A stretch of DNA of 64,000 nt from a virus: positions 13,033 to 77,032 of IMG/VR virus record IMGVR_UViG_3300046804_003463; one strand, written 5' to 3'. This document shows, in pieces, positions 18,356-37,421 of this stretch (its first letter is position 1; each line of letters starts with the position of its first letter). The notes beneath the pieces are model-generated. The model had not been told where the DNA came from and did not search any database. It saw nothing but the letters and a program-made list of their open reading frames with translations. The translations under genes and the position numbers were made by a program.

Positions 18356-18789
18356 GGCTTCTTGGCTGCTTCGTTCAAAATACTTACTACGTTGGGATCA
18401 AGTTCACACTTCGCATCAATAACTTTTTCCACTTCCTTAATCTTTTGGACAATAATCTCTCGTTTTTCAACGACTCTCTTTGTTCTCTCTCTGATTTGCG
18501 TTTCAATAACAACATTTGTCTGCTGTGATTTCGCTTCTGCATCTTTCACTTTCTCCTCTAGTTCAGCCACTCGTTGACGCCATTCTTGCTCTACGCTATA
18601 GCCTCCTTTCCAATATATACCGACACAGAGCAGTGCTATGGAAACATATTTGATTATGTTCGCATAGTTGCTAATGAATAATAGTCTGCTACCTATGAAA
18701 CCTAAGATGGTGCCTATGACACCACAAACTAAAACTGTATTAATAATGAATAGAAGAAAACCAGAGGGCAAAAAACTAAGAAGCCACAT
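18352..18789 (-). CDS. Inner-membrane spanin (Rz-like)
   Basis: N-terminal TM segments followed by a coiled coil; upstream of Rz1-like gene and endolysin. Confidence 0.75.
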   Translation of the reverse strand: MWLLSFLPSGFLLFIINTVLVCGVIGTILGFIGSRLLFISNYANIIKYVSIALLCVGIYWKGGYSVEQEWRQRVAELEEKVKDAEAKSQQTNVVIETQIRERTKRVVEKREIIVQKIKEVEKVIDAKCELDPNVVSILNEAAKKP

Positions 18790-19009
18790 TTGATTTTCTC
18801 TTTAGGAATGAAATGAATGTCGCAGTCTTGCGTTTCTTGACACCAGGTTCACCCTGTGGTCCTACACCAAGTCCGGCAATAGCACCACCGCCGACTGCGT
18901 TTGCTGGTGCGCCCATAGCACCAGCATCTTCTTTGAGTGGTTTACAGACTTTATCGGTGCTACACCAATAATAACCTGCACCACATTCTTTTTTGAATTC
19001 GTTAGACAT
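18776..19009 (-). CDS. Hypothetical protein (start MSNEFKKEC)
   Basis: Start follows CATAAATA at 19015-19022; Gly/Pro-rich with an LKE/D motif. Confidence 0.55.
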   Translation of the reverse strand: MSNEFKKECGAGYYWCSTDKVCKPLKEDAGAMGAPANAVGGGAIAGLGVGPQGEPGVKKRKTATFISFLKRKSNVAS

Positions 19010-19025
19010 AGTTTTATTTATGTTA

Positions 19026-19742
19026 TTAGTACCCTGTTCCACCAACATTATAGCCAGTATATACAGTCCAATTTGTGCCTGTGCTATCTCCAACCATAAC
19101 ATAACTTTGATTGGCAGTTACACCACGATTTGATGGTCCCAAATCACCGCCTGTGAGTTTTGCTGTAGAACTGTACAAACCGGAAATGACACCAACATTA
19201 TTATTACCTCTTGCTTGTACACCAACCAACAATTCAATCCAAGGACTGCCACCAGTCAGACTTGGGTTAAAAAATGTTAATTCATACACCATGTTGGGGC
19301 TGCCCGGTGTGCCAGTTGTTGATGATGTTCCTTCCCAACGCAACCTCTTATAGTCTGTACCCGAAGTAAAACTTGAAACTCTTTGCCATGAATTATCTGC
19401 GGCGGCAAAAAATATTTTATTGAGAGCAGGTGAAGATGCACTTAGACCATTGAATTGATTTGAGCCTGAACCGAATGTTACATAGTAATTTGAGTTTGGA
19501 AAAAAACTAGTATAACCAGTATTATTGTATGTCCATGTAAATGGTAAAGTCACATTTGTATTTGCATCATCACCAGTTGATGAAATGATAGATGTCCAAC
19601 CAGATGCGGGAAATGGACTTTGTGCGCCAGCACCCAGAACGGGCGCCTTTGTGCCAGTGTTTAATGTATAAACACCACTAACTGGTATCTGTGAATCAAC
19701 GTAGATTCCACCAGTGATTGTGATGCCAGGTCCGATTATCAT
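19026..19742 (-). CDS. Putative virion (fibre/appendage) protein
   Basis: Gly/Ser/Thr-rich, beta-type composition. Confidence 0.55.
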   Translation of the reverse strand: MIIGPGITITGGIYVDSQIPVSGVYTLNTGTKAPVLGAGAQSPFPASGWTSIISSTGDDANTNVTLPFTWTYNNTGYTSFFPNSNYYVTFGSGSNQFNGLSASSPALNKIFFAAADNSWQRVSSFTSGTDYKRLRWEGTSSTTGTPGSPNMVYELTFFNPSLTGGSPWIELLVGVQARGNNNVGVISGLYSSTAKLTGGDLGPSNRGVTANQSYVMVGDSTGTNWTVYTGYNVGGTGY

Positions 19743-20778: not shown

Positions 20779-22269
20779 TTATGTTTTCTGCATATCGCTA
20801 GACAATTCGGGGTCTTTTTGAAACTTGTCCGATGCCTCTTCTTGTTCTTGCTTTTTTCCTTTTGCAGCATCTCTTACGATTTGTGCTTTACGGGATAGAG
20901 TTCTTGCTGCTGCACTTGGCTCGTCAACGGCTTCACTTACAGTCTTCCAGCCACCCCCCTTTGACTTGTACCACTTTGATGCCCAACCGTTGGCATATGC
21001 AGAAGGATACACATCAAACTTTTGTTTTGCTAGTGCTTTTGCTTTAGACCACAATGCAGGATTGGTCGGAGCATTCTTCTCTTCAAGATACTCAATCTCT
21101 TCGTTGACATGACCATACTTCTTTTTGTACCAATCAGGCATGCCATTCTTTTTTCTCCAATGTCTTACAGTCGCAGAATCATTTGCTTGGTCACGATACT
21201 TGTTTTCTGCTGTTGTGTTATGACTCTTCATTGCTTCTGCTGCTTCATGTGCATCTTTGGCAATGTGAACTAACGCTTCATTAGATTTCTTATGATACTC
21301 ATGACCTTCTAGTGGATGACGCTGTGATGGACGGCCTTCTGTCAGTTCAACTTCTTCTTTGTTGTATTTCTTTTTCAAATACTTGTCAACCTTGCGTTCA
21401 TATTCACCTTTTGGTTTCTTTGCAACAGGAGTACCATGTGGAGAAGGAACATATCGCTTAACTTCTTCTTTCATACCCTTAGGCTTGATACCTTTTTTCT
21501 TCATGTTGATAGCAATTGCTGCCTGTTGTGCAGGATTTGCTGCTTCGCTCAATTCACCACGCAGATAGTTTGCCGCTGTAGAAATATAATCTTCAGCCAA
21601 TGTAATCTTTGATTGTACCCATTCAGGAAGATTTGTGTTATCATCCATCATGTCAATCAAATCTTGTGCATTGAACATTAACGAACGAAGTTGTGACATT
21701 GCCATATCGCCTTCGTAATCGTATTCACGTGGGTCTTTTGCTTCTTTCATATGTTCCTCGTTTACTCTAGGTGATGCTTGAGTGAAAGATTGAAATGGTT
21801 TTTTTGAAGGTCCAGAAACATGTCTGCCTTTTTTGAACAATTCATATGAAATTCTTCCAGTTTGAATTTGTTCATTCACTTCTGTCTCTTCAGAAACTCT
21901 TGATGCTTTCATGATACCACGAATCAATGGTGCTTTGAGTTGTTTATGTCTTGGCACAGAAATGTTTTCTTTTGACTTAGGATGGCCGTATACATCATGA
22001 CCACCAGAAGTTCTCTTCAGTGACCAACCAGATTTTTTCAGATGAGCATGTACATCACGTGTCTTCATGCTTGACTCTGGCATCTCATCAAGTTGTTCAA
22101 CTGATTCAACTTTATATTTCTTTTTGATTTCGGCCTGCTTTGCAAGTCTTTCTCTGTCATCAGAAATGCTGTAAGAATGACCTAGTTCTTTGTAATAGTC
22201 GGGATGTGGTAGTCCCGACTTCTTACGCAGAGCCATTTGTCGTTGATGTAGTTTATCGGCGACTGACAT
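20779..22269 (-). CDS. Modular internal-head-type polyprotein with a HicA-like domain
   Basis: Modules separated by (L/V)xE acidic linkers; aa ~63-124 are HicA-like. Confidence 0.7.
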   Translation of the reverse strand: MSVADKLHQRQMALRKKSGLPHPDYYKELGHSYSISDDRERLAKQAEIKKKYKVESVEQLDEMPESSMKTRDVHAHLKKSGWSLKRTSGGHDVYGHPKSKENISVPRHKQLKAPLIRGIMKASRVSEETEVNEQIQTGRISYELFKKGRHVSGPSKKPFQSFTQASPRVNEEHMKEAKDPREYDYEGDMAMSQLRSLMFNAQDLIDMMDDNTNLPEWVQSKITLAEDYISTAANYLRGELSEAANPAQQAAIAINMKKKGIKPKGMKEEVKRYVPSPHGTPVAKKPKGEYERKVDKYLKKKYNKEEVELTEGRPSQRHPLEGHEYHKKSNEALVHIAKDAHEAAEAMKSHNTTAENKYRDQANDSATVRHWRKKNGMPDWYKKKYGHVNEEIEYLEEKNAPTNPALWSKAKALAKQKFDVYPSAYANGWASKWYKSKGGGWKTVSEAVDEPSAAARTLSRKAQIVRDAAKGKKQEQEEASDKFQKDPELSSDMQKT

Positions 22270-22271
22270 GA

Positions 22272-23294
22272 CTAGTCTTTCTTAGCCATTTTGGTTGCGG
22301 TGGCATACATTACCGACTTTGCACGTTCACCGTAACGCTGTTTGAAACCAGAAAGTTTTTTCTTCATACCCATTACATAATCTTCTTTCTTCTTTGCTTC
22401 ACCTTTTGTCAGTTCACGCTCATCAATTTGCTCAACTGATTCTGGCATTGTCTTTACACCGACAGTTTTACCAGCAGCAATTTTTGGTTGTTTCTTCTTA
22501 GCTTCAAAACTTGCTTTTTGGTCTTCATATTCTTTTGTCCACTCGTCATTTGTTGGCTCTTCAACGATGGTTTCAACAAAGCCATTTACCTTGTCGGCAT
22601 CAAGCACTTCAATTTTTGTACCGTCAATGTCCATCTCTTCAGTTTCAATTGGTGCTAGAACTTTCAGACCATGCTCATTGTACAGTTCAAGCATTTCTGT
22701 AAATGATGCTGACTCATTGACACGTGTTGAACGCTTGTAGTTTTGACGGGCACCATAACCACCTTTTTTCTTTGGTGTATCATCTTCATCATCGTCATCT
22801 TTGTAGTCACGCTTATGTACAAGACCTGTTGCTGTCTTTGTGACTGAACCTGTTGCTGTCTTACCAGCATCCATGCGCTTCTTAGCATCTGCTACAGTTG
22901 GAAATGCTTCGTTCAGTTGCTCTTGTTCTGATGCTTCAACTTCTTCATTCTTTTTACCATAGTAATCATCTTTGTACATGCGTGATGTTGCCTTACGCAG
23001 ACCTTTTGTGCGGTTTTTTGTCTTGTCTGCAATTGCTTTGCTTACATATGAACCAAGTGCTTTTCTACCTGCTGGTGTATCACCAACTTCGTCTAATTGT
23101 TCAACTTCTTCTTTCTTCAGCACACCACGACCAACCAACACATCTTTGTGTGTAATCTTATCTTTTGGATGTGCTAGTGCTGCCAAAGATTTCTCTTTGT
23201 CGGTTTTTGGTGTTGAACCATGACTTGTTTCTGCCATGATTTTTGCTGCTGCTTCTGCGACACCTTTCAGTGCCTTGTCATGAAAAATTGACAT
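22272..23294 (-). CDS. Modular internal-head-type protein
   Basis: Charged modules with EQLDE, QLNE, RVNE and QIDE linkers. Confidence 0.65.
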   Translation of the reverse strand: MSIFHDKALKGVAEAAAKIMAETSHGSTPKTDKEKSLAALAHPKDKITHKDVLVGRGVLKKEEVEQLDEVGDTPAGRKALGSYVSKAIADKTKNRTKGLRKATSRMYKDDYYGKKNEEVEASEQEQLNEAFPTVADAKKRMDAGKTATGSVTKTATGLVHKRDYKDDDDEDDTPKKKGGYGARQNYKRSTRVNESASFTEMLELYNEHGLKVLAPIETEEMDIDGTKIEVLDADKVNGFVETIVEEPTNDEWTKEYEDQKASFEAKKKQPKIAAGKTVGVKTMPESVEQIDERELTKGEAKKKEDYVMGMKKKLSGFKQRYGERAKSVMYATATKMAKKD

Positions 23295-23318
23295 TGTAGT
23301 TCTCCTGATTTAGTTTTG

Positions 23319-24629
23319 TTATCTTGTAATCTCTTCCCAATCCATTGATGCATAGATGTCTGAACCGTTTAGGGTAGCAGAAGCACATAATGTTAATTCG
23401 TATGGAGTGTTGGTGAAACTGTCTCTTTCTAATTGAAATTTGAATAATGCTTCTTTAAGAATATCAACTGGTGCTGCACTAATTGTTGCACCAGTAAAAC
23501 CTGATGCTAATACACGACCGCCAGTCATTGTACCGCCATCAATTTTGTATTCAACAGAAGAATTATCTCCCGCACTTACCCAAGTTCCACCTCCAGTGGT
23601 GTTGGCGCCTGCTCTTACTTGCCAATTATAAACTGAGTTATTCGTAATACCCAATATTGATAGTGCAGTAAGAATTACGATTGCATCTAAACGATTTGCT
23701 TTTAATCTTAGTGAAATAACTGGATAATATGTTCCAGGCGTTGGTAAATCAATAGGTGATCCAATTGCTGTTTGAATGGCTTGTTGAGAGCCATACAATT
23801 CATACCCACCTTCAGAAATGACTGTCGAACATATTTGCTTCATTGTTGAGTTACTTGCGGTAACTCCAGTATTCTTGATTTCATATCTTAATGGCAAAGA
23901 GGCCGTTGTCATGTAAGGTGTTAAATTTTTATTATCATTATGAAATATATGTGCGATTGTCATTTTACCATCAACAACAAAACCACAACGAACATCACCA
24001 ACACCTAACCATTCAACGTCCATCCAAAGAATGTTTGTTTTACTTACGTCAAGTCCACCAGTGTGTTCTGCACCACCACTTTGTGATGAATAACCCGTAC
24101 CGTCAAACTTATCTACATTCCAATCTGATTGTGCAACTCTTGTTTCTGTAACTGTGCTTGATGTGTTTGTTCTCAATACGAAATAATTTGTTGTACCATC
24201 ATTCTCAAGATAAATGCCATTACTTTGACCAAAATATCCTACTCTTTGACGAACATTTGCTTTTGGTTCGTTCATAGCAAATGTTGACATAATCAACAAA
24301 GATTTACCTGGTTGATAAGACATAACTTTTGTCGTTTCTCTGGCAACTTCAGCATTTGCGGTTGTGCCAACAGTCATATTAATTGTACTTTGGTTTTCAA
24401 CAAAAGTGTATGAACTATTACTTGCTGTGTTTGATGTTACCCACAGTCCATTATCAGAAAAACGATGTGTGCTTTCAAACAAAGTAACAGGATTTACGAT
24501 ACGCAAACGGCCAAACGCATCTGTCAAAGTGCCAGACGGTGAAAGACGATCAGACATCATATTCACTTCATAACGAGTGAATACTTGTCCTGAATCTATC
24601 TTATGTAAGTCCGTTCTAAATTGTGCCAT
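23319..24629 (-). CDS. Putative virion structural protein
   Basis: DAFGRLR motif; beta-rich 436 aa. Confidence 0.6.
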   Translation of the reverse strand: MAQFRTDLHKIDSGQVFTRYEVNMMSDRLSPSGTLTDAFGRLRIVNPVTLFESTHRFSDNGLWVTSNTASNSSYTFVENQSTINMTVGTTANAEVARETTKVMSYQPGKSLLIMSTFAMNEPKANVRQRVGYFGQSNGIYLENDGTTNYFVLRTNTSSTVTETRVAQSDWNVDKFDGTGYSSQSGGAEHTGGLDVSKTNILWMDVEWLGVGDVRCGFVVDGKMTIAHIFHNDNKNLTPYMTTASLPLRYEIKNTGVTASNSTMKQICSTVISEGGYELYGSQQAIQTAIGSPIDLPTPGTYYPVISLRLKANRLDAIVILTALSILGITNNSVYNWQVRAGANTTGGGTWVSAGDNSSVEYKIDGGTMTGGRVLASGFTGATISAAPVDILKEALFKFQLERDSFTNTPYELTLCASATLNGSDIYASMDWEEITR

Positions 24630-24631
24630 AA

Positions 24632-24894
24632 ATTAGCAGTTCCACTTTCTTATTTTGGCTTTAACTCCGGATATTTTTTATGCATTTCTTCCCTTGATAG
24701 TTCATGCATATCTTTCCACATTTTTGCTTCTTTTTTAGTTTTTGTGGTTCTAATATGACGGCCATTTTCATCATGCACATTATATTCAACATCGGCTGTT
24801 GTTCTGCCACGATAACTTTCTTTCTTAGTTATTGTTGCTTTCTTTTCTTCAACTATGAAAGACTTAAATGTTTTCATTAGCAATTCCACTTTCT
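24632..24894. repeat. 19-bp direct repeat (1 mismatch) flanking a small gene
   Basis: attagcagttccactttct (24632-24650) and attagcaattccactttct (24876-24894). Confidence 0.85.
24650..24877 (-). CDS. Small protein with capsid-targeting-like N-terminus (MKTFKSFIVEE)
   Basis: N-terminus resembles the T4 IP CTS MKTYQEFIAE. Confidence 0.7.
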   Translation of the reverse strand: MKTFKSFIVEEKKATITKKESYRGRTTADVEYNVHDENGRHIRTTKTKKEAKMWKDMHELSREEMHKKYPELKPK

Positions 24895-25593
24895 CAGTGC
24901 TTTATTAATACGTGAATCTGGATCACGTGCTGTCTTTGCTGATGTCAGTCTACGCTTCATGCCGCCCATTCTTGCACAGAATGATTTGCGACGATTTGCT
25001 GCTTTAGAACCAGGTTTCAGTTTGCTTGGCTTTGTTGTCACAGCCATTGACAGTTTTGAACCTGGATTCTCACGACGATATGATTCAATACCTTTACGAT
25101 TCAAACCACCAGACTCAGACTTACCTTCTTTACGCTGCCATGCTGCAACTTCTTCTAACTGTTCTAATTGTTCATCTGTCAGCGGACCATCGTCTGCTTC
25201 ATAGTTCTCTTTTTTCACTTTCATCATCTTTGGCTTTGTGAACACAGGATTATCCGCACCACCAGCATCACCTTCTCTCTCCTCTACAAATTTTTTCAGC
25301 TTTTTATAATAATCTGATTTTTCACCGATATGCTTCAATGCAATTTTTCTAGCAACATGTTTTTCATCAGTATGTTCCATTTCAACTTTAGTGCCATGTG
25401 CTACCAAATCTTGAATATCTGAAATAGACATTTTATATTTTTTTGCTAAATCATCTTCAGAAGGAACTGATTTATCAAGTTCAACTTCTTCTTTTACACA
25501 TGAGCCTGGTGAATATGGTTTTTTACCAGGTACTGGTCTATGACCTGGCCAACAACGACCAGCTTCATCTAAGAATGCGCTAAACGATTTCAT
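24877..25593 (-). CDS. Modular internal-head-type protein (CTS-like MKSFSAFLDE; DUF5661-like and DUF6321-like modules)
   Basis: GTKVEMEH...DYY module and AWQRKEGK...SFCARM...WNC module, separated by LEE/ELD linkers; DUF names from memory. Confidence 0.7.
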   Translation of the reverse strand: MKSFSAFLDEAGRCWPGHRPVPGKKPYSPGSCVKEEVELDKSVPSEDDLAKKYKMSISDIQDLVAHGTKVEMEHTDEKHVARKIALKHIGEKSDYYKKLKKFVEEREGDAGGADNPVFTKPKMMKVKKENYEADDGPLTDEQLEQLEEVAAWQRKEGKSESGGLNRKGIESYRRENPGSKLSMAVTTKPSKLKPGSKAANRRKSFCARMGGMKRRLTSAKTARDPDSRINKALRKWNC

Positions 25594-28115
25594 ATGTAAT
25601 TTCTCTTTTTAAATGTTGTAAGTGAGATACCTTTTTTCTTCAGTTCGTCTTCTTTTTGATCACCAATTGATGCTGTAGTCGTGTCGCCTGTAAGTTCATT
25701 GATATTTTTAGGCACAACTTGTGTTGCTTTACCTTTTTTGCTTAATTTTTCACCCATGTCTCTAGCAGGAGATTCACCAGCACCCGCCATTGAAATGCCT
25801 GGCTCTATACCTTTGTCTATTGACTCTTGAATTTTTTTCTGCCAATTTTCTTTGATGGTTGAGATGGTGATGGTTCTTCTATCTTCACTTCTTCCTTCGG
25901 CAACGGGCTTGTCAAGGGCTGGTCGTTCTTTTCTTCCAACACTGGCTCTAACTTTTCCAAGTTCTTTGGCTGTTGGGGTGAAACTATTTTGTCCATAAAC
26001 TGCTTCAATCGCAGAATTATCAGGTGAATGTACTTCATACAAATCCTCTTTTAGTTTTACAACATATCTCTTGCCTACTTTTGCTACTGTGCCACCTTTT
26101 TGGTGTGCTTCTTTTGCTGCTGAACCACGAATAAAAAACAATCGTGTCTTGCCATTCTTGTCTGTCAATAGTTTTTGTTTCTTCGTTTCTTCACTAATCT
26201 TGCCTTTGCCAAAATTTGATACATTGATTGGATCACCTTTACGTTCTGGGTTAGGATCGTGTTTTCTTTTTGCACGAACAGCAGCAGCACGTTCTTTCTT
26301 TGACAACGCTGCACGTTTTTCATTTGACATGCATTTTGGTTTTGGTTCACCTGGCTCTCTTGCACAAGGACCAATTGCTTCACCCTTACTATTGATGCGT
26401 TTCCAACCACCTTCGGGATCAGTTTTGCTGAACCATTTACGCAGGTCTTCTTTAATCATGCCTCTTCCTAGTGTAAGTAGATTAAATGCACCAGGATCAG
26501 ACATCGTATTCACTTCCTCTTCTTCTACCATGTCTTCTTCATCTGACTTGAGCAAACGAAGTGTGCGTGTGACTTCTTCTACAGTATCTCCTGTTACTGA
26601 TACTGTGACTGCTTCATTCATCTTAGCCATTTTGCTTTGATGTGTTTCAACAGTCTTTGCAATCTTTTCTACTGGCACTAGACTACCATGCACTGAACGA
26701 TGTGTGACTTTACCATCTTTACCATAACGACCAAAGCCATAATACTCAAGACCCATTGTGTTCATATCATCATGTGTGCCGGCATCTTTATGTGGTTTCG
26801 TGTCGGTACGAATTGGTGCTGTATCTTTTTTACCTAACTCTGTAGCAATCCAACCTTTTGCTGAATCATTCTTTGGTGGTTTACCAACAAACTTTTGTAT
26901 GTTCTTGAAAATGCCGTCTAGTTCTTTTGTCTTTGCTTCTACAACTTCTGGTGGTGCAGAACGCAAATCTTCTGAGTTATCAAACTCAACATAATTGTCA
27001 CGGAATAGTTTACCAAACATTGGTCGTGCCGCTTGTACAGAATCCCATTTTTCTTTACGAATGTCTTCTGGTACTGTACGACCACCACGTTGACCACGTT
27101 CAATATTTCTCTCTTTTGATACTTCGTCGGCTGTGTTGACCATAATCATGGATGTTTCATATCCTAACTTCTCAAGCATGTCTTTGATTTTGGCATACTT
27201 TTCTGGGTCATCACCTGTACCATTGATGATAAGACCATTACGACCATGAAGTGCAAGACGTTGACGCAACTCTGTAACATTCTTTGCACGTTTGCGAACT
27301 GCATTTCTTTGCGCTTCTTCATTGTCTGGCATTTTCTTATCAAGACCTTCTTTGTCCATCAGATACTCAAGTGCTTTGTCTGAATTGATTTCAGTCAGAC
27401 CATGACCATCAAGTGTCTTACTCAACACATAATCTTTACCTGAGCCAGGACCACCACCAAGAAACACTGCTTTGAAAATACCTTTGTCGTGAACACCTTC
27501 ACGAATGATTTCTTCGTGCAATCTCATACCTTTACGTACATCATTGAACATTTGTTTGACATGTGCATGAGACATTGATGATGGTGCGCCCTTCTTGAAT
27601 GAATCAAGGTCACCACTCTTTGCATGTTCACGCATCTTTGAAGCAGAAATGCCAGTTACACCTTCAGCATCAGGATCACGTTCACCCGCTGAGTGTACTT
27701 TGATTGATTTGAAATTGAAACGGGCACCTTCATGTGTGCCATTATACTTGTGAAGCAATCTGTGATATTCTTCTGTACGATCAGAGCCACCAACCATGTG
27801 TAGATGAGTTACACCTTTCTTATGCAATGCTTCTGCATGGTCAAAGAATGTTGGCTTGTCTTTAGATGCTGCTGTGAAGTTCGTGCCAGGAAATGCACGT
27901 TTAGCATGTTTGACTTTTTGATCTGCTGTAAGGGGATTTTTCTTAGAGTCCTGTGAATGTGACAAGACGATGTGATGAGAACCGCCGACAGAATCGGCAA
28001 TATCTTTGACTTTGTTGACTAGTTTTTCGTGACCGTTTGTGATAGGATTCATGCGACCAAATGCTAGGACGGCATGTTTCTCTTTCTGTTCACGTAGAAA
28101 ATCTCTAAATTTCAT
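25590..28115 (-). CDS. Modular protein: CTS-like N-terminus, HIGH-superfamily nucleotidyltransferase, P-loop kinase (zeta/AAA_33-like), further modules
   Basis: MKFRDFLRE; FGRMNPITNGH, VGGSDR, ISASKMR; GGPGSGK; DLRKWF...KPKC module. Confidence 0.8.
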   Translation of the reverse strand: MKFRDFLREQKEKHAVLAFGRMNPITNGHEKLVNKVKDIADSVGGSHHIVLSHSQDSKKNPLTADQKVKHAKRAFPGTNFTAASKDKPTFFDHAEALHKKGVTHLHMVGGSDRTEEYHRLLHKYNGTHEGARFNFKSIKVHSAGERDPDAEGVTGISASKMREHAKSGDLDSFKKGAPSSMSHAHVKQMFNDVRKGMRLHEEIIREGVHDKGIFKAVFLGGGPGSGKDYVLSKTLDGHGLTEINSDKALEYLMDKEGLDKKMPDNEEAQRNAVRKRAKNVTELRQRLALHGRNGLIINGTGDDPEKYAKIKDMLEKLGYETSMIMVNTADEVSKERNIERGQRGGRTVPEDIRKEKWDSVQAARPMFGKLFRDNYVEFDNSEDLRSAPPEVVEAKTKELDGIFKNIQKFVGKPPKNDSAKGWIATELGKKDTAPIRTDTKPHKDAGTHDDMNTMGLEYYGFGRYGKDGKVTHRSVHGSLVPVEKIAKTVETHQSKMAKMNEAVTVSVTGDTVEEVTRTLRLLKSDEEDMVEEEEVNTMSDPGAFNLLTLGRGMIKEDLRKWFSKTDPEGGWKRINSKGEAIGPCAREPGEPKPKCMSNEKRAALSKKERAAAVRAKRKHDPNPERKGDPINVSNFGKGKISEETKKQKLLTDKNGKTRLFFIRGSAAKEAHQKGGTVAKVGKRYVVKLKEDLYEVHSPDNSAIEAVYGQNSFTPTAKELGKVRASVGRKERPALDKPVAEGRSEDRRTITISTIKENWQKKIQESIDKGIEPGISMAGAGESPARDMGEKLSKKGKATQVVPKNINELTGDTTTASIGDQKEDELKKKGISLTTFKKRNYI

Positions 28116-28146: not shown

Positions 28147-28161
28147 TATTTAGTATTTAGT
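28147..28161 (-). promoter_or_regulatory. Tandem T4-late-type promoter candidates (ACTAAATA x2)
   Basis: Directly upstream of the CTS-bearing gene run. Confidence 0.55.
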
Positions 28162-28864
28162 AGATTTCCGTTGCTCCTGTGCTGGCCATGACACCTTGAC
28201 AGTGTATTTTATCTAGTTCCACAAGACGGTCAGGTTCAATGTTGAAGAAATGTGCATGTTCTGTGTCAACACCGGCATCTTGAACTACACCAATGTTTCT
28301 TCTACAGACGATAGAGTAATCATCAATAAGACTTGGGCAAAATGAGAATAAACGAGTAATCAACAAATCAGTAAATGTTTCTGCAACTTCACCTCTCATC
28401 CAAGTTGGCATTCTTTTCTTAAACACATACCTACCAAAGTGGTCATGCTCTGCTATGTCAAATTCATCATGAAGTATGGTTCTTGCAGAAAACTTGTACA
28501 CTCTACGAACAGAATGCATCAGACGTTTCATCTCAGGTGCTTGTTTCAGAAGCATCATCATTTTTAGCATCAACACATTTTCTGCTTCACTTTTGCGGGC
28601 AACAGCAGCAAACTGTGCTATGTCTTTATCACCAGAAAAGTCAGCAATCAAATCAACAAGACCACTCATGCTGTCATACTTTTCTTTTTCTACTGCCTCT
28701 GGTGAACCATCTGCTAAAATAACAATCGCATCAGGACATTTCTTTCTGAGTGATACAAGACCTTCAATCGTTTGTTGTAATCTATCTTCACGACTGAGTA
28801 CACCCATGTTTGGATTAAGAGCAGATGTTACAATGAATAGCTGAAGTGAAGGAATCAATGACAT
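28157..28864 (-). CDS. Putative glycosyltransferase-like (GT-A) protein
   Basis: VTSA...RLQQT...ILADGS...KFSAR pattern; last gene of the sugar/cyclitol cluster. Confidence 0.5.
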   Translation of the reverse strand: MSLIPSLQLFIVTSALNPNMGVLSREDRLQQTIEGLVSLRKKCPDAIVILADGSPEAVEKEKYDSMSGLVDLIADFSGDKDIAQFAAVARKSEAENVLMLKMMMLLKQAPEMKRLMHSVRRVYKFSARTILHDEFDIAEHDHFGRYVFKKRMPTWMRGEVAETFTDLLITRLFSFCPSLIDDYSIVCRRNIGVVQDAGVDTEHAHFFNIEPDRLVELDKIHCQGVMASTGATEIY

Positions 28865-29529
28865 TCGTACTCCGAAAATAATTTAATTGTTTTATATGTC
28901 GCTTTTGATTTCAATACATGAAGAATCGTGTCAGTAATTTCTTTTGTATCTAACAACTTGTCTTTATTCGGATGACCATCTTGCATCGGTGTATTAATGC
29001 CACCAGGATGAATACTTGTCACACGAATTTCATCCATTTGTGTATAAATCTCTTTACCAAGAACATCAGCAAAAGCAGTAATAGCGTGTTTAGACGCTGA
29101 ATAAACTGCTTCCCATTCCAGTGGCATAAGACCTGATACAGAATTGATGAAGAAAATATCACTATGTTTATTCATCCACTTGTATGCTTCTTTTGTTACA
29201 TACATCGTGCCTTTGACATTCAAATCAATGATTCTGTCTATTGACTCAAATGAAAAATCATCTCTGAATAAACCCCATTGATATACGCCAGCATTGTTTA
29301 CAAGAACATCAATGTGTGTACCAATTCTTTTGAATGCTTCTTCAACTTGTTTTGATTTCGTGATGTCACATTCTATCCATTGAAATGTGTCGGGAAAGGC
29401 AAAAAGGTTGATAGATGGCTTTGTGCGTGAAAGACCATATACAAAGTAACCTTCATCAATCAGTCTGTCTGCTATATCATAACCAAGACCATAACTACAA
29501 CCTGTCACCACAGCCACTTTACGCATCAT
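28855..29529 (-). CDS. Short-chain dehydrogenase/reductase
   Basis: TGCSYGLG, NNAG, YSASK and PGG motifs. Confidence 0.92.
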   Translation of the reverse strand: MMRKVAVVTGCSYGLGYDIADRLIDEGYFVYGLSRTKPSINLFAFPDTFQWIECDITKSKQVEEAFKRIGTHIDVLVNNAGVYQWGLFRDDFSFESIDRIIDLNVKGTMYVTKEAYKWMNKHSDIFFINSVSGLMPLEWEAVYSASKHAITAFADVLGKEIYTQMDEIRVTSIHPGGINTPMQDGHPNKDKLLDTKEITDTILHVLKSKATYKTIKLFSEYECH

Positions 29530-30662
29530 ATCTCCTCAAAAACATCAATCGCTAATTTCATTTCATCTTCTGTAATGTCATTTACAATCTTATAGTTGCC
29601 AATAGCAATAGGTAATGGCGCATACTGATTACCATTACGATGCTTTGTTGCATCACGTAGGCTCTCTAACAATAACTTCATGTTGGTAAAGTCTTTGTGA
29701 AATGTTTTGAGTTTTAGTCTCTTTGCGACACCAAATATTCGTTTGAGTTGAACAGTATCAATGTAGCCACGAATGAATGAAATACATGAACTGTATAAAC
29801 AATCCAATGCTACTGCTTCACCATGTAGCAATTCAGGTATATTAGTCATTTCAATGACAGGACTGAATGTGTGTCCAAAATCTACACACCGATCTAATCG
29901 TTTTTCCCACAGATTAGGTCCAAGTTCTGCAATCATGTCTGTGATAGCAAGATTGATGACACGAACTGGTACGGCACCATACTGAAACTTTTCATCAATC
30001 AGTATTTCTGCATTCTCTTCTAGTAGATGAAAGAGTTCTGGTGATTTGATGACAGCAAGTTTGAATATCTCTGCAATGCCATTGATGATTTCTCGTTCAC
30101 TCTGTGTACGAATAAATTTCTTGTCAATGTATGTCGCAAGTGGTGGGTAGTACGCACCAATACGATTGCGTCTGCCTAGATGATTGACACCAACTTTAGA
30201 ACCTACAGAAGCGTCAACGATGGCAAGAAGTGTTGTGGGAATTTTAACGTATGGAATTCCACGGCGGTATATGCTACAAGCAAAGCCAACAATATCCAGC
30301 AGAACACCTCCGCCAATAGCGATAATCGGTTCACGGCGTAACACTCCATTCTGTTCAAAAAAGTCTAAGATACGATCTACATTCTTCCAGTTTTTATTTT
30401 CTTCTTTGCAGTCTACACAAAGTATTTTGCAACTCAACTTGACCGCACCAAAGTATGTTGCAATGTTATCTTTGTACAAATCATGTACTTCAGAATCAAT
30501 AACAATGATTCTGCGATCACTATTCGTAATGTTTACAATGTCTTGATTACTTGGGCTGAAGATGTCAGCAGAGTATGTAAGTTTGAATTCTACTGGTAGT
30601 TCTGTTTTGACTGACCAAGTTCGTTTGAACTTGTCATAATCCATCATAAAGTCTAAACTCAT
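29526..30662 (-). CDS. Sedoheptulose-7-phosphate cyclase, 2-epi-5-epi-valiolone synthase (EEVS)-like
   Basis: DHQS fold (GGGVLLD, PTTLLAIVDASVG) with MIAELGPNLWE..LDRCVDFGHTFSP and KHRNG, unlike AroB (LNxGHTxGH). Confidence 0.85.
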   Translation of the reverse strand: MSLDFMMDYDKFKRTWSVKTELPVEFKLTYSADIFSPSNQDIVNITNSDRRIIVIDSEVHDLYKDNIATYFGAVKLSCKILCVDCKEENKNWKNVDRILDFFEQNGVLRREPIIAIGGGVLLDIVGFACSIYRRGIPYVKIPTTLLAIVDASVGSKVGVNHLGRRNRIGAYYPPLATYIDKKFIRTQSEREIINGIAEIFKLAVIKSPELFHLLEENAEILIDEKFQYGAVPVRVINLAITDMIAELGPNLWEKRLDRCVDFGHTFSPVIEMTNIPELLHGEAVALDCLYSSCISFIRGYIDTVQLKRIFGVAKRLKLKTFHKDFTNMKLLLESLRDATKHRNGNQYAPLPIAIGNYKIVNDITEDEMKLAIDVFEEI

Positions 30663-31612
30663 TTCATCGCCTTACTAAACAATTTACATGCATGAACATA
30701 AAAATATTTTGCTTTGTCAATATCACCTGCCAGCAATTTGAAGGGCAGCATACGAATGAACTGTGATGCTTCAAGTATATCTATGAGTTTCATTTTATCT
30801 TCTGGTAACTCAGAGATGAAGTGTTTGTTGAATGTATCAAAGTTATTCGTGTCATCGTTTGGATTAGATAAATTAATTCCTTTCACATGAACATTGTGGT
30901 CATTGATAAGACCATAATAACTGCGTGAACACTGAAGCACTTGTGCGTAGTCAAGGTATTTGGTATTCCACATACTCTCTTCATACACATCAATGAAAAC
31001 TACACGGTCTTCTTCAAATGAGTACATGATATTCTCAAGTGTTGGATTACCATGTATATTACACTCATCATCGTTCTTTAATTCGGAAAAGTATTCTTTC
31101 AGAACATGAAGATAACCACCCACACCTGTAACAACTTCACCATTGAAATGATATGTGCCATAATAAAAGAAATCTTCAAACTCTTTTATCTTGATAGCAT
31201 CTTCAATTTTCTGTTGTATTTCTTCAATAAAATAAAGTTTTGGTGCGCCAGCAATAGGTTCTTTTCTGATTGAGTGAAGTGTATTCAGTCCTTTCCAGAC
31301 TGCTTGACTTATTTTGAAGATTTGTTCTTCACTTAGTATGTCTTTGCTAAGAATGCTTTTGATGTCATGAAAGCCCTCTAGATATTCTAAATCAAACCAT
31401 GCTTCAACGCTAGTAGAATCAACATTTACAACTTTGGGAAATAGATTAGGATATAGTGTATTGTATTGCTGTAGTTTCATTAACTGAGAATACCAACGCA
31501 TGAAACCATATTCACGATTTCCTACACGTGAAATTTCCTTGCGTACAATTTTCTCATCTGGTAACCAATAAGTTCTACTTAATGAGCCACCCTTCAATGA
31601 TATAGTTTTCAT
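30659..31612 (-). CDS. Aminoglycoside-phosphotransferase/choline-kinase-like protein
   Basis: LKGGSLS loop, HGNPTLENI (HGD-like) and FID motifs. Confidence 0.7.
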   Translation of the reverse strand: MKTISLKGGSLSRTYWLPDEKIVRKEISRVGNREYGFMRWYSQLMKLQQYNTLYPNLFPKVVNVDSTSVEAWFDLEYLEGFHDIKSILSKDILSEEQIFKISQAVWKGLNTLHSIRKEPIAGAPKLYFIEEIQQKIEDAIKIKEFEDFFYYGTYHFNGEVVTGVGGYLHVLKEYFSELKNDDECNIHGNPTLENIMYSFEEDRVVFIDVYEESMWNTKYLDYAQVLQCSRSYYGLINDHNVHVKGINLSNPNDDTNNFDTFNKHFISELPEDKMKLIDILEASQFIRMLPFKLLAGDIDKAKYFYVHACKLFSKAMK

Positions 31613-32340
31613 TTTGCACCTAGTGTTTGCCTTGCTATCTCAATGCCGTATTCTTGTGGACTACCTAGCACAATTGTCTCTTGACTACCACCAAGAGGAT
31701 TCATGAATACTTGTTTATTGGATTGTATCATACTTTGTATCACATCTGCAATATACAATTCACCATCTTTTTCGGCTAACTTGTTGTAATATTCTAAGTA
31801 AAGGTGTCCAGTTAGAAAACCATAGAAGCCTGATGACGCATACGGTGAGATTTGTTTCTTTTCTACGATTTCAATTACCGTGTTTTCATATGCACGAACA
31901 TAAGAATACTTTGGTGAATTACCCACGAACACATCAATGTACGCATCATGCTTTGCGGTCAAGTCATCAGCAATAAAATCTATACGACGACCTTTGATGA
32001 TCGTATCTGCGTTATGTACAAATGTTGGTAAATGTTTGTTGTTTAGTTGTTCAATACCAATTGCCGCTGTGTGTGCTTGACCTTTTGTATCACCAATATA
32101 CAAAATATTGCTGTCGTTCCAACCTAGTGGCTTGATTGCTTCAACAAGTTGTTCTTTGAAATAGATGTCTCTTTTGTTGGCGACAAGAATAAGTTGATTG
32201 ACCCAACCAATGTTTTTCAAAATGTCATATATGATTGTCTTATCATTCCAAGGCAAAAGATATTTTGGTATGTCAAAGCCGACATCATGAAAACGGGTGT
32301 TATAACCCGCCATACAGATTATCAGATTCATTTCAGCCAT
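31609..32340 (-). CDS. Sugar-phosphate nucleotidyltransferase-like protein
   Basis: ICMAGYNTRF...PKYLL, TKGQAHT, NAD, EKK, GELYI and LGSP motifs. Confidence 0.82.
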   Translation of the reverse strand: MAEMNLIICMAGYNTRFHDVGFDIPKYLLPWNDKTIIYDILKNIGWVNQLILVANKRDIYFKEQLVEAIKPLGWNDSNILYIGDTKGQAHTAAIGIEQLNNKHLPTFVHNADTIIKGRRIDFIADDLTAKHDAYIDVFVGNSPKYSYVRAYENTVIEIVEKKQISPYASSGFYGFLTGHLYLEYYNKLAEKDGELYIADVIQSMIQSNKQVFMNPLGGSQETIVLGSPQEYGIEIARQTLGAK

Positions 32341-33041
32341 TCTTCCATATCATTTCGTAGCAGTGAATGCCATGTGCTGTTGTACTCACCTGGTGAAAAC
32401 GGATGATTGACATCACAATACACAAGATTCTCACCAACAAGATTGTTTCTCTTCCAGTTGGCACTCATAAAATCTTCCATCATGTATTGTACACCAGAAT
32501 TGTAGAACTCATCAATGTGATTGTAAGCATCAGCATACTTGTCCATGTTTTCGGATGATGAGAACGCAAACTGATCGTTGCCAAAGTCACGTTCTGGTGT
32601 CATGCGACAGTTTGGTATATACAACTTACTGTTGTCTAGTTCTTCAAATGGTATGCGAACATTAATAGCAAAGTCAAATCGTGAACGAATGACCCAATCA
32701 AACTTTGTTTCAAAGTATTTTTCATACTCATACTTTGTTTTCATACACTCTCTGATTGCATACAACTGAGCATATGTTGACATGCGACCATCTTTAACTT
32801 TCCAGTTTGGTGATGGTGGTGGAGTATTCGTGTACTTTGACAAATCAACTGTGGGATTTGGTGATGTCTTAAAGCTGTATGCATTGTATGTTGAAGAAAT
32901 CTTTTGCATTTGTTCAGCAGGCATTTCCCAAGAATGCAGAAATACAGTAACATCATTACCTTTGATGATGTTCTCGTAATGATATGCATAGCCTTTTTCC
33001 CACATTCTTGGTTGGCCAGAAATACATAGTGCTATTCTCAT
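32328..33041 (-). CDS. Putative glycosyltransferase-like protein
   Basis: MRIALCISGQPR...FLHSW...DWVIRSRFD...NDQFA pattern recalled from phage sugar loci. Confidence 0.6.
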   Translation of the reverse strand: MRIALCISGQPRMWEKGYAYHYENIIKGNDVTVFLHSWEMPAEQMQKISSTYNAYSFKTSPNPTVDLSKYTNTPPPSPNWKVKDGRMSTYAQLYAIRECMKTKYEYEKYFETKFDWVIRSRFDFAINVRIPFEELDNSKLYIPNCRMTPERDFGNDQFAFSSSENMDKYADAYNHIDEFYNSGVQYMMEDFMSANWKRNNLVGENLVYCDVNHPFSPGEYNSTWHSLLRNDMEEWLK

Positions 33042-33718
33042 AGTTCTCTTCCTACATTTGCTTTGTTGTCTGTGATGCCAAATGGCTTTAGTTGTTCCTT
33101 TTCCATCACAACCATACTATTGTAAAATGAAACAGAATACAGATTGTGATATACATCTAATGCTTCTTGTGAAATTGGTGAACCTTGAAAGTGTTGCTGA
33201 TTGACAATATCAGTTGCTCGTTTACAATGTTCTGTGAATGTACCAGCACCACGAAACACACCACCCCATGGCTGTGGCCAATAACTTGTGTGAGTGTCTT
33301 CACAAATGTAAACACCACCTTCTTTGATATGTGGAAAAACTTTATTGAGTGTGGTGATTTGATGATTCATTACATGTGAACCATCGTCAATTACAATGTC
33401 AAACTTGTCTTGTGTTTTGAGAAATTCATCCCAAAACTCTGGATCACTTTGGTCACCCATCACAATATTGACATCACCATCATACTCATACTTCAAACAT
33501 TCTTCATTGATGTCAATAGCAACAACTGATGTATCAGAACCAAAGTATTTCAACCACATCTCAATTGAGCCACCACCCAACACACCAATTTCAAGTATGC
33601 GTGGTGCTTTGTGAGTAAATTTACTCAGATGTCTTTCATATACATCAAAATAACCTGACCATTTGGTAGAACCTTTTTCAAGTTCCCAAAATAATTCTTT
33701 GATTCTATTTGTCGTCAT
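33038..33718 (-). CDS. Class I SAM-dependent methyltransferase
   Basis: LEIGVLGGGS, GDQS, DIVIDDGSH and GGVYICED motifs. Confidence 0.88.
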   Translation of the reverse strand: MTTNRIKELFWELEKGSTKWSGYFDVYERHLSKFTHKAPRILEIGVLGGGSIEMWLKYFGSDTSVVAIDINEECLKYEYDGDVNIVMGDQSDPEFWDEFLKTQDKFDIVIDDGSHVMNHQITTLNKVFPHIKEGGVYICEDTHTSYWPQPWGGVFRGAGTFTEHCKRATDIVNQQHFQGSPISQEALDVYHNLYSVSFYNSMVVMEKEQLKPFGITDNKANVGREL

Positions 33719-34547
33719 ATTTCGCCTCAATCACTTTACGCCATTCTGGCACACGATCATACTGATGTACAATAGTATACTCTATTCCTGTTGAAGTTAC
33801 AACCTTGTCACCTTCTAGTTTCGGTGATGGTTCTAATAGATGTGGTCTAAACTGTTCAATCTTACTTGGATCAGCAGTTGTACCTAATTGACATGCCCAA
33901 CCTTCTTCTGATTTCATGTACATTGATGTTTTCACATATGGATGTCTAGAAACCATCACATTGAATACCGCTTGATCAACAATTGGTATTGGGCGATTGA
34001 TACAGTTCAAAAATAATTGCAATGTTAAATCTCTCATTGCATGTCCACGGCCGGCAAGAACACCTACATTGAAAATTGTATTGTTCTTGAAATCATCATA
34101 GATGCCTTGACCATAACATTGTGTAATATTTTCACGACCCCATGGCTCATCTTTATATTTCATACTTTCAGAAGAAAACACTAAGTCTTCTTGTGCAGAA
34201 AGATTCTCTTCTAACCATGTAACAGGATTTTTTTGAAAGATAACATCTCGTACATCAGTGGTAATCACATAACGATAGTCGTTGCTTTTGAGCAGTTTGT
34301 AAATATGAACAAATCGTTCAACATGCACCATCAGTTGTGATTGATAAGTTAGATTACCTTCACCGTCTTGATTGAATGCAATGATTGAGAAACCTGCTTC
34401 AGTTACCTTTTTTACGGTATCTTTGTCGCAGTTCATGAGAATCAGAACTTTGTCACCCTCAAAGCCTGATTGATTGATTGAATTAATCCAATACTTTAGT
34501 TTTGCCCAATCATAATTTGTTGAGCAACCCACGATCAAATCCTTCAT
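33705..34547 (-). CDS. Putative glycosyltransferase (GT-A, DxD)
   Basis: TDVRDVIFQ, NVGV, DQAVFN and HQYDR motifs. Confidence 0.75.
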   Translation of the reverse strand: MKDLIVGCSTNYDWAKLKYWINSINQSGFEGDKVLILMNCDKDTVKKVTEAGFSIIAFNQDGEGNLTYQSQLMVHVERFVHIYKLLKSNDYRYVITTDVRDVIFQKNPVTWLEENLSAQEDLVFSSESMKYKDEPWGRENITQCYGQGIYDDFKNNTIFNVGVLAGRGHAMRDLTLQLFLNCINRPIPIVDQAVFNVMVSRHPYVKTSMYMKSEEGWACQLGTTADPSKIEQFRPHLLEPSPKLEGDKVVTSTGIEYTIVHQYDRVPEWRKVIEAKYDDK

Positions 34548-34562
34548 AATATCTCCAATAAT

Positions 34563-34748
34563 TTATTTTATGTCTGTTGTTGCCCAGTTCGTTGTGTATT
34601 TTTTGTATTGTTGTTGACTCTGACCAGGCGTGTCATCAAGATATTTAGCAGTGAGTTCTGGTCTGCCCCACTCACCACCACCTGCTTTAGACACAAACTC
34701 TTGTCTGCTATCTTTATTTGCCTTGAGATAATCTTTGAATGTTTTCAT
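34563..34748 (-). CDS. Small protein with CTS-like N-terminus (MKTFKDYLK)
   Basis: GEWG...Y..DTPGQ motif. Confidence 0.6.
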
Positions 34749-36696: not shown

Positions 36697-37421
36697 TTTG
36701 ACATACTTAGAAATGGGTTTTCTTTTTTTGTTCCTGGTGCCACAGAAAATTTACTATTAGGCATTTTTTTGATTTTTATTTCCGCTTGTACTTCATAAAA
36801 TTCTGAACGGGTAGCAACACGAACTTTGAAATCACCTGATCCACTCAAAACTGGAATGCCTTTTATTTTGAGTGGATTCTTTTTTGATATCATATAAAAA
36901 TCATCACCTGCCTGCATGTAGTAAGCCGGCTCCGCTTTACCAATTGTATAGTGTTCTGTTACGACATCACCAAGATTATAATTTTCTTCATTAGCAATAT
37001 AACGATTGACACTTGGTTGATCAAAAAATGCTTTCATTACACTCAAAGGCACTGCACCTTCCTCTTTGAGTCCACTTTTTGTAGTTGGTATCTTGATTAC
37101 TTTTTCGGGTATGCCAGAAAACTTTGCAATATCCTTGATAAACTTTTTGGCTTGTGCAGACTTATTCAAAATATCTACGGTGTGTTTGGCAGCAGGAGTT
37201 TTATAAGTCGTATGCCACTTACCTTTCTCATAATAAACACGTGGATTGGAAAGATTATCTGTGTGAGACATTTTTACCTCTATCCACACTTTCATGCGAT
37301 TGTACTCCATCAATACATCAGAATACTCTGTGCTAACTTTCGGCCTTTTTGCTGTAACTCCAGGAATCTTATTGATATTTTTGGCGACATCATTTTCAAA
37401 TTTGTCGGAGGCTGCACTCAT
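36693..37421 (-). CDS. PD-(D/E)xK nuclease-like protein
   Basis: FE...SD...IEVK pattern. Confidence 0.6.
   Translation of the reverse strand: MSAASDKFENDVAKNINKIPGVTAKRPKVSTEYSDVLMEYNRMKVWIEVKMSHTDNLSNPRVYYEKGKWHTTYKTPAAKHTVDILNKSAQAKKFIKDIAKFSGIPEKVIKIPTTKSGLKEEGAVPLSVMKAFFDQPSVNRYIANEENYNLGDVVTEHYTIGKAEPAYYMQAGDDFYMISKKNPLKIKGIPVLSGSGDFKVRVATRSEFYEVQAEIKIKKMPNSKFSVAPGTKKENPFLSMSK

Follow-up and report, generated by a model that had tools for sequence, protein, structure and literature searches.

The internal proteins of bacteriophage T4 are the closest described counterparts of the proteins reported here. In IPIII the first ten residues suffice for targeting to the head; within the leader, positions 4 and 7 act in targeting and positions 8 and 10 in processing by gp21, which cuts after L/I-x-E (PMC9026906). 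One leader on many cargos has also been reported for the T-even internal proteins (PMC3012670). In our reading of the T4 record, ipII and ipIII begin MKTYQEFIAE and ipI begins MKTFKEF. Replacing Glu by Asp at the cleavage sites blocks processing in T4. Here we describe a group of open reading frames (ORFs) with leaders of this kind in the viral record IMGVR_UViG_3300046804_003463. The window, by which we mean the whole stretch of 64,000 nucleotides that was analysed, is part of a 77-kb IMG/VR contig judged 45% complete. One of its products is an 841-residue polyprotein, which starts with such a leader and whose modules meet at hydrophobic-x-Glu sites. Comparison with related genomes indicates that this cargo is probably packaged through a T4-type head pathway and processed there.

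The likeness to T4 IPI, IPII and IPIII (and Alt) covers a leader of about ten residues with aromatic residues at positions 4 and 7, Leu or Ile at 8 and Glu at 10; the use of one leader on unrelated cargos; small basic products (predicted here); and late expression, which here is predicted from a late-promoter-like motif. As in T4, a protease of the gp21 family is present in the lineage (in relatives of the window), and the capsid protein has sites of the same type. Unlike the T4 internal proteins, which are single small proteins cut once, the proteins described here are chains of up to about eight modules (1431 residues in one relative) with predicted internal cuts. Here modules shift from one ORF to another, some of the leaders are shorter by one residue, and host range and phage family differ.

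A second counterpart is the NMNAT-like enzyme of cyanomyoviruses, annotated as 'cytidylyltransferase' (T4-GC190). Sullivan et al. (2010) recorded it in S-SM1 virions with 25 peptide counts, gp21 having 8 in the same table, and also found GC1453, GC1454 and GC1455, which correspond to SSM1_188, 191 and 192, neighbours of the S-SM1 enzyme. The S-SCSM1 study, which proposes no mechanism, found an NMNAT-like protein in virions and refers to two further cyanophage proteomes in which this was also the case; altogether the enzyme is recorded from the virions of four phages, S-SM1, S-SCSM1, S-CBWM1 and one other. The cyanophage papers give no packaging mechanism for it, regarding it as either a possible contaminant or a passenger that they cannot explain. 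The window's enzyme has a homologous catalytic domain, a syntenic position and the same leader, which reads MKKFSAFLNE in S-SM1 and S-MbCM100; in both of these an extra module lies between the leader and the Rossmann domain. In the window, unlike in the cyanomyoviruses, the enzyme shares a single 841-residue precursor with a kinase and further modules.

In the giant phages phiKZ, 201phi2-1 and SPN3US, the cleavage motif carries a small residue at P3. Many head-internal proteins of these phages, forming the inner body or ejected, are cut after the Glu of a short motif by a diverged gp21-like protease, which removes propeptides before the products are ejected (PMC9026906). This set resembles the present one in its processing and differs from it in the P3 residue, in having no shared short N-terminal tag and in consisting of large paralogous families, not strings of shuffled mini-modules. 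Polyvalent proteins, including the P1 head proteins DarA and DdrB, likewise hold several unrelated domains per polypeptide and, by prediction or experiment, accompany the DNA, in some cases after proteolytic processing before packaging (Iyer et al. 2017, PMC5512222). With about seven modules in the 841-residue and eight in the 496-residue protein, the chains studied here fall within the 2-15 unrelated domains per polypeptide that characterize polyvalent proteins. None of the hallmark domains of that class (MuF, ART, ArdC, LPD, internal metallopeptidase) gave a Pfam or PHROG match in these ORFs or their segments. Polyvalent proteins are processed by domains of their own, whereas here a prohead protease is predicted to act at a universal linker site. 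The polyvalent survey mentions neither cyanophages, HicA nor zeta-type kinases in this role (PMC5512222).

The phage and its relatives

The phage belongs to a lineage of uncultured freshwater T4-like relatives of the Kyanoviridae. The gene order UvsX, gp41-type helicase, DUF6267, 'cytidylyltransferase' is common to the window and Pelagibacter phage HTVC008M (Kyanoviridae), at about 39% identity. A megablast search of the region against 50,697 phage records gave zero matches, and the isolate collection contains no close relative. Our comparison set consisted of 79 related viral contigs or loci, 43 of which provided sequences for an alignment of the 841-residue polyprotein. One relative, G001, is complete (172,439 bp, with terminal repeats), and its polyprotein is 82% identical to that of the window. 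All ORFs studied in and around the locus are on the minus strand (Table 1).

Table 1. Positions of the leaders, modules, ORFs and neighbouring genes in the window
Feature	Position	Strand	Description
Tandem late-promoter-like motif ACTAAATACTAAATA	28147..28161	-	26-40 nt upstream of 841-aa ORF
841-aa ORF	25590-28115	-	Starts MKFRDFLRE; about 7 modules
Leader MKFRDFLRE	28089..28115	-	Resembles capsid-targeting sequence; one residue shorter than in T4
Module 10-206	27498..28088	-	HxGH-type nucleotidyltransferase ('cytidylyltransferase', NMNAT-like); ends LHE/IIRE
Module 207-501	26613..27497	-	P-loop kinase-like domain, helical extension, small beta module GFGRY..G.VTH; ends MNE
Module 502-556 (AVTVS...GMIKE)	26448..26612	-	Mostly low confidence
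Module 557-642 (DLRKWF...GKGKISE)	26190..26447	-	Basic; two conserved Cys
Modules 643-841	25593..26189	-	Small beta domain 650-689 ending LKE690, then poorly ordered basic tail
238-aa ORF	24877-25593	-	Start overlaps stop of 841-aa ORF (ATGA)
238-aa modules	24877-25593	-	Leader MKSFSAFLDE; Cys-Trp mini-module 11-35; DUF5661-containing 36-148; DUF6321 149-238
75-aa ORF	24650-24877	-	Length from its ATG; basic; leader MKTFKSFIVE, then E
436-aa virion structural protein	23319..24629	-	phrog_1645, E 1.7e-128; same gene run; not a polyprotein
340-aa polyprotein	22272..23294	-	No canonical leader; linkers EEVEQLDE, EQLNE, ESVEQIDE
496-aa polyprotein	20779..22269	-	8 modules; no canonical leader
496-aa module order	20779..22269	-	Helical N-module; HicA 63-133; acidic helical EYDYEGDM module; AANPAQQ; GRPSQRHP; DUF5872-like 398-446; conserved C-terminus
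HicA-toxin-fold module	21871..22083	-	Between EQLDE/ and EVNE/
DUF6267 protein, 407 aa	35473..36696	-	Leader MKFMEYLKE; Pfam PF19782, E 6e-115
61-aa ORF	34563..34748	-	Starts MKTFKDYLK; aromatic targeting positions; no Glu at position 10 (YLKA)
242-aa ORF	36693-37421	-	Overlaps start of DUF6267 ORF
Sugar/cyclitol-type biosynthetic genes	28157-34547	-	Inserted between DUF6267 and polyprotein operon
108-aa ORF	18776-19102	-	Cys-rich stretch

The N-terminal leaders

An earlier note on this DNA had pointed to ORFs starting MKFRDFLRE, MKSFSAFLDE, MKTFKSFIVEE, MKFMEYLKE and MKTFKDYLK and had likened such starts to the T4 capsid-targeting sequence. All five lie on the minus strand where it placed them, and the leaders match IPI and IPII/IPIII at the functionally mapped positions; only MKTFKDYLK stands in part, having the aromatic targeting positions but not the Glu. 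MKTFKSFIVE (I8/E10) and MKSFSAFLDE (L8/E10) carry F4 and F7 and agree with T4 at all four mapped positions, and MKFRDFLRE and MKFMEYLKE do so with a shift of one residue (L7/E9 in both). The strict pattern M-[KR]-(x)-F-x-x-[FY]-[LI]-x-E, defined post hoc from the same data on which it was scored, was seen 4 times among the 139 ORFs of this genome versus 0.0014 expected (Poisson P ~1.5e-13), and in all 4 cases it sits at the first Met of a genuine ORF.

In the 43-sequence alignment, the leader of the 841-residue protein has invariant M1, F3 and E9 and almost invariant F6 and L7; positions 4 and 8 are hypervariable, with 11 and 16 different codons respectively. L7 is encoded by five Leu codons plus Ile, and E9 by GAA (19 sequences) or GAG (18). 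The middle residue is thus free and the conserved residues vary in synonymous codons, which argues that selection acts on the peptide. Across related loci, at least 15 unrelated sequences stand behind the same leader, among them the nucleotidyltransferase, the Cys-Trp mini-module, DUF6321, DUF6267, the DLRKWF module and the 75-residue protein. Among the metagenomic homologues of the 238-residue ORF, the leader also stands at the start of 106 of the best 120. AlphaFold models the leader of the 841-residue protein as a short helix outside the Rossmann fold. That the leader is simply part of the Rossmann fold was considered and rejected; the two are separated by an extra module in cyanophages, and the helix is separate in the model. 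On these comparisons the leader is an add-on, portable peptide under selection, and we take homology to the T4 capsid-targeting sequence to be its best explanation.

The motif might instead serve expression or some other localisation, with no targeting to the head, and the linkers between modules might be DNA-level recombination joints for shuffling. AT-rich starts such as ATGAAA are indeed common in highly expressed genes, and T4-like genomes are known to shuffle modules through short conserved sequences. However, the conserved residues of leaders and linkers have freely varying codons, the motif agrees, position for position, with the T4 tag as defined by experiment, and homologues are found in virions. 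Moreover, versions of the DUF6321 module in the two podoviruses examined, which should lack a T4-type head pathway as judged by family alone, the protease not having been searched for, carry no leader. An account of this kind is already disfavoured, and we consider it extremely improbable.

Module junctions

The linkers EQLDE, EVNE, ELSE, ELTE, YLEE, IIRE, MIKE and QIDE, proposed earlier as cleavage sites separating unrelated modules, are all present. We anchored nine unrelated module families by short motifs and scored the presence of hydrophobic-x-Glu (background 0.0275 per position) at a fixed upstream offset in independent contexts. In eight families the site was found in 14/14, 9/9, 9/9, 9/9, 11/11, 18/21, 12/15 and 3/3 contexts; the ninth has sites at two offsets, with 7/17 at the commoner one. 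The site stands directly before the DLRKWF module in all 14 of its contexts, and in two contexts that module lies directly behind N-terminal leaders, MKTFNTFVVE and MKTFNSFVSE. Its predicted mature end is therefore identical whether it is encoded behind a leader or behind an internal site. The HicA module is preceded by L-x-E in 11 of 11 contexts. Some fused ORFs still contain a former leader, as in ...SFKSFINE followed by RCWPGY.

The earlier expectation that gains and losses of modules would respect these linkers was borne out among the relatives, where indels run from site to site and the points of ORF fusion and fission coincide with hydrophobic-x-Glu to the residue. One relative (L019) is without residues 503-556, from site E501 to site E556, and another (L076) without residues 691-763, from E690 to E764; the orthologues also have extra modules, which lie behind LHE201, in front of MNE501 and behind ISE642.

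Conservation within the junctions follows the pattern of the leader. P3 and P1 are invariant at conserved junctions and P2 takes 6-11 kinds of residue; conservation reaches 100% at sites 9, 206 and 501 of the 841-residue protein, where P2 is occupied by 11 kinds of residue. At matching sites inside the kinase fold (242, 282, 350), P2 is conserved too, as ordinary conservation of a fold would predict. The linker E-[ES]-V-E-Q-[LI]-D-E occurs 75 times and is encoded by 40 different DNA sequences. Conservation of the linkers at the DNA level, as recombination signals, was rejected as the main constraint, as their codons vary; linker DNA may still aid shuffling.

Structural models place the junctions in disordered segments. 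In the 841-residue protein, the predicted local distance difference test (pLDDT) score is below 50 at 200-208, 486-511, 524-558, 617-646, 690-750 and 762-820, and the conserved junctions 201/206, 501, 556, 642, 690, 764 and 807 all lie inside these segments. The junctions of the 496-residue protein (E62, 127/133, 176, 242, 311, 397 and 446) are all likewise inside segments with pLDDT below 50. The predicted fragments are mostly basic (isoelectric point 9-11), like T4 internal proteins. The linkers are best read as predicted prohead-protease sites.

A simpler arrangement would be that the precursors are packaged and lose only the leader, remaining as long virion proteins of the 'polyvalent' type in which the acidic linkers are flexible spacers. 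Multi-domain packaged phage proteins are well known (PMC5512222), and S-SCSM1_29, a chain of the same modules, is recorded as a single 517-residue virion protein. Set against these precedents, the internal junctions share the P3/P1 constraint of the leader site with a free P2, former leaders are found inside fused ORFs, and the same module occurs behind a leader or an internal site. Spacers would not need a fixed Glu exactly at the boundary in nine unrelated families, and T4 gp21 is known to cut core proteins at multiple internal sites (PMC9026906). Removal of the leader alone therefore seems to us unlikely.

Modules of the 841-residue polyprotein

The AlphaFold model of the 841-residue protein, built from 43 sequences, has a mean pLDDT of 65, with the nucleotidyltransferase and kinase domains and a small beta domain confidently modelled. 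The nucleotidyltransferase (module 10-206) matches Pfam PF01467, phrog_3041/395 and TIGR00125, has a weak NMNAT match (18 bits on the NCBIfam NMNAT model versus a 127-bit cut-off), and is modelled at pLDDT 85-90. The P-loop nucleoside monophosphate/nucleoside-kinase-like domain spans residues 207 to about 430. It matches Pfam Zeta_toxin/AAA_33, resembles adenylate kinase in sequence, and resembles adenylate kinase, UMP-CMP kinase and polynucleotide kinase in fold. In HTVC008M a separate ORF starts MIPFILKE/GLYDPGIFKA, the stroke marking the predicted cut. For the nucleotidyltransferase and kinase as a pair, the best fold matches are two-domain proteins with the same order, namely NadR (6gyf, 8x7f) and ATP sulfurylase-APS kinase.

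Module 502-556 has been relocated behind the next module in some relatives. About 65% of relatives have no DLRKWF module in the orthologue and carry it in other ORFs; an ESM Atlas search with this module returned only unnamed viral clusters at 0.89, a lead at best. The basic tail has conserved sites at 764 and 807.

Homologues in virions and in other phages

Besides the enzymes described above, S-SCSM1_29 has the same junction type as the present proteins and is annotated as a virion protein; the gene after it starts MKTFKQFMSE. In two podoviruses DUF6321 is a stand-alone gene of 84-94 residues adjoining the capsid gene, with no leader and no sites, and one of these proteins begins essentially at the predicted mature N-terminus.

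These records bear on the proposal that the polyproteins are prohead core or scaffold-type proteins, cut to peptides that mostly leave before DNA packaging, and that they shape or fill the core and are not effectors. T4 gp22, gp67 and gp68 behave in this way (PMC9026906), and in G001 the core-position gene adjoining gp21 starts MKSLLEFKSIVEEE. Many of the modules are tiny and show no enzyme fold that can be recognised, and the linkers share their acidity with scaffold proteins. Yet homologues are found in mature virions with many peptides, and a role as filler hardly accounts for the enzyme and toxin folds. In G001, moreover, the genes are far from the head-gene module, and the predicted fragments are basic like the retained T4 internal proteins. 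We judge a purely core-forming role to be very unlikely.

Protease, capsid protein and promoters

Peptidase_S77 is present (E ~1e-35) in 3 of the 3 larger related contigs, one of them the complete G001, and the GELGHP and GVSSRxLGS motifs of these proteins align to T4 gp21. In the region of the FLTE/A site of T4 gp23, the G001 major capsid protein has MIKE/S and ILQE/T. The gp67/gp68 position of G001, between portal and protease, is occupied by a gene for 222 residues (126124-126792, plus strand), whose start, quoted above, resembles the leader of the window's 75-residue ORF.

Tandem late-type promoters had been proposed in front of these ORFs, and the part of this claim that stood is the tandem ACTAAATACTAAATA upstream of the 841-residue ORF; a tandem CTAAATACTAAATA is common to the window and G001, upstream of the orthologous polyprotein. 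The 8-mer ACTAAATA, on the other hand, is not enriched in the window (4 seen vs 3 expected), whereas its core TAAATA is enriched in G001, where it lies 9-60 nt upstream of 23 of the 214 ORFs vs 3.1 expected (7-fold). The G001 genes bearing it include those assigned as gp18, gp19, gp22 and gp23, and this polyprotein. TATAAATA occurs once in the window, and the gene upstream of DUF6267 has it: a perfect copy lies 25-32 nt upstream of the 242-residue ORF, and the syntenic gene of G001 likewise has TATAAATA.

A model for packaging and its weaknesses

The leader, the module boundaries, the disordered linkers, the gp21-type protease of the lineage and the virion homologues support the reading, first offered in the earlier note, of a packaged and cut polyprotein. 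In the proposed pathway, transcription would occur late from an NTAAATA-type promoter, and the leader of about ten residues would dock the precursor onto the scaffolding core of the prohead. A gp21-type prohead protease would then cut after the Glu of hydrophobic-x-Glu, taking off the leader and separating the modules at the disordered linkers. Each polyprotein would give several small, mostly basic proteins and a few enzymes (nucleotidyltransferase, P-loop kinase, HicA-fold RNase), and the products would stay in the head with the DNA and probably be ejected into the host. Modules could be added, lost, moved or split into leader-bearing ORFs with the mature products unchanged, because the cut site would be the joint between modules.

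Several points weigh against this pathway. The leaders of the 841-residue and DUF6267 proteins are one residue shorter than that of T4. The 340- and 496-residue ORFs have no canonical leader, which leaves their route into the head unexplained, and the model of the 496-residue protein is of low confidence. A search for gp21 (PF03420) found none in the window's contig, which is 45% complete, and the control genomes do not carry the family either. The S-PM2 and Syn9 proteomes did not detect the enzyme, and the S-SCSM1 authors allow for carry-over contamination. A hydrophobic-x-Glu fixed at the start of a module could formally belong to the module itself, and alignment programs favour gap ends at repeated motifs. 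Finally, this phage and its close relatives are uncultured, and packaging and cleavage in them are predictions from sequence. Targeting, cleavage, ejection and host function are what we infer, with presence in virions taken from the literature on homologues only.

Injection of the products and an effector role for them are plausible, the analogy being with T4 IPI and Alt. An anti-defence or takeover role is suggested only by the nature of the modules, that is, the HicA RNase fold and the nucleotidyltransferase plus kinase.

Other ORFs of the operon and its surroundings

The 841-, 238- and 75-residue ORFs overlap start to stop, and the run extends through the virion structural protein, which is 78-95% identical in related contigs, to the 340- and 496-residue ORFs. 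A large protein search with the 238-residue ORF gave at least about 8000 matches, with no informative name among the matches listed.

The 75-residue protein resembles a T4 internal protein in size and charge. Copies 97-100% identical to it are found in 7 related contigs. Such identity is seen in L002, L003, L004, L008, L010 and L011, in which the adjoining 841-residue protein is only 78-94% identical, and most other relatives are without the 75-residue protein. This pattern suggests strong constraint or recent exchange.

The large ORFs had been described as strings of unrelated modules; the 340- and 496-residue ORFs are polyproteins, but neither starts with the canonical leader. The 340-residue protein has a conserved 22-residue N-terminus ending IMAE, a variable middle and a conserved basic C-terminus. 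Across its family (about 35 loci) the N-terminus MSIFNDKALKGVAEAAAKIMxE and the basic C-terminus (..RYGERAKSVMYATATKMAKKD) are fixed and the middle varies freely, and in the 496-residue family the C-terminus is fixed (..DKFQKDPELSS..). These fixed termini may constitute an assembly signal of a second kind. Among the chains of these modules, the longest one observed is a single polyprotein of 1431 residues, of the 496-residue type (L019:5453-9745, plus strand).

The AlphaFold model of the 496-residue protein (mean pLDDT 53) includes the helical N-module, a HicA fold and the DUF5872-like module. The HicA module scores 38.9 bits with Pfam PF07927 versus a 27-bit cut-off (42.8 in the genome search) and matches the HicA chains 4c26 and 6g26. 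No HicB (HicB_lk) above the cut-off was found in this contig or in the complete relative; the module has the HicA fold and is not a HicAB module. Pfam searches of ten cut-out modules (E<=1) gave only DUF5661 and a sub-threshold DUF5872, and the remaining modules of these ORFs are DUF5661, DUF6321, DUF5872-like or unnamed.

The leader of the DUF6267 protein is kept in relatives and absent from the cyanophage homologues SSM1_189 and S-MbCM100_164. A sequence search of the PDB with DUF6267 gave no match, nor did NCBIfam with the DUF6267, 436-residue and 242-residue proteins. The DUF6267 protein holds a K-W-D-G motif (..TTKWDGAPA..) that recalls motif I of the covalent nucleotidyltransferases (ligases); with this motif and its leader, the protein may be a packaged ligase-like enzyme. 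A single profile, phrog_455, unites DUF6267 and the nucleotidyltransferase. The genes inserted between DUF6267 and the polyprotein operon are dehydroquinate-synthase-like, SDR, kinase-like, nucleotidyltransferase and glycosyltransferase-like. The Cys-rich stretch of the 108-residue ORF (..CGAGYYWCSTDKVCKP..) is like the N-terminus of SSCSM1_29 (..CKPGYYWCYTDKKCKK..; L107:163-1716), and this similarity suggests that the ORF may be a further member of the module pool.

Conclusions

In the literature open to us (subscription-only papers lay outside reach), we found no link of the T4 tag to cyanophage-like phages and no description of such polyproteins. No paper in that literature joins 'capsid targeting' with cyanophage, pelagiphage, KVP40 or Kyanoviridae, a general T4 review aside.

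A broader proposal, which we regard as possible but doubtful, is that aquatic T4-like phages (Kyanoviridae and their freshwater relatives) share a general cargo platform of 'beads on a cleavable string'. One tag would load any precursor, and the protease site would serve at once as cut, module boundary and shuffling joint. The released set would include injected first-strike effectors, such as an antitoxin-less HicA RNase and a NadR-like pair for salvage of nicotinamide adenine dinucleotide (NAD) that could offset NAD-depleting defences.

If the packaging and processing set out here are correct, they would explain why enzymes without a structural role recur in cyanophage particles, a question left open in the papers. 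The T4 head-targeting tag would be extended from coliphages to very abundant myoviruses of lakes and oceans, and for environmental phages the leader would offer a naturally occurring tag with which to load proteins into the head. A cargo polyprotein in which the protease sites double as module joints would be a new layout, and one that predicts a cleavage map. If confirmed, the finding would reveal a large pool of injected proteins; for the DUF6321 module by itself, a metagenome search gave at least about 8000 clusters.

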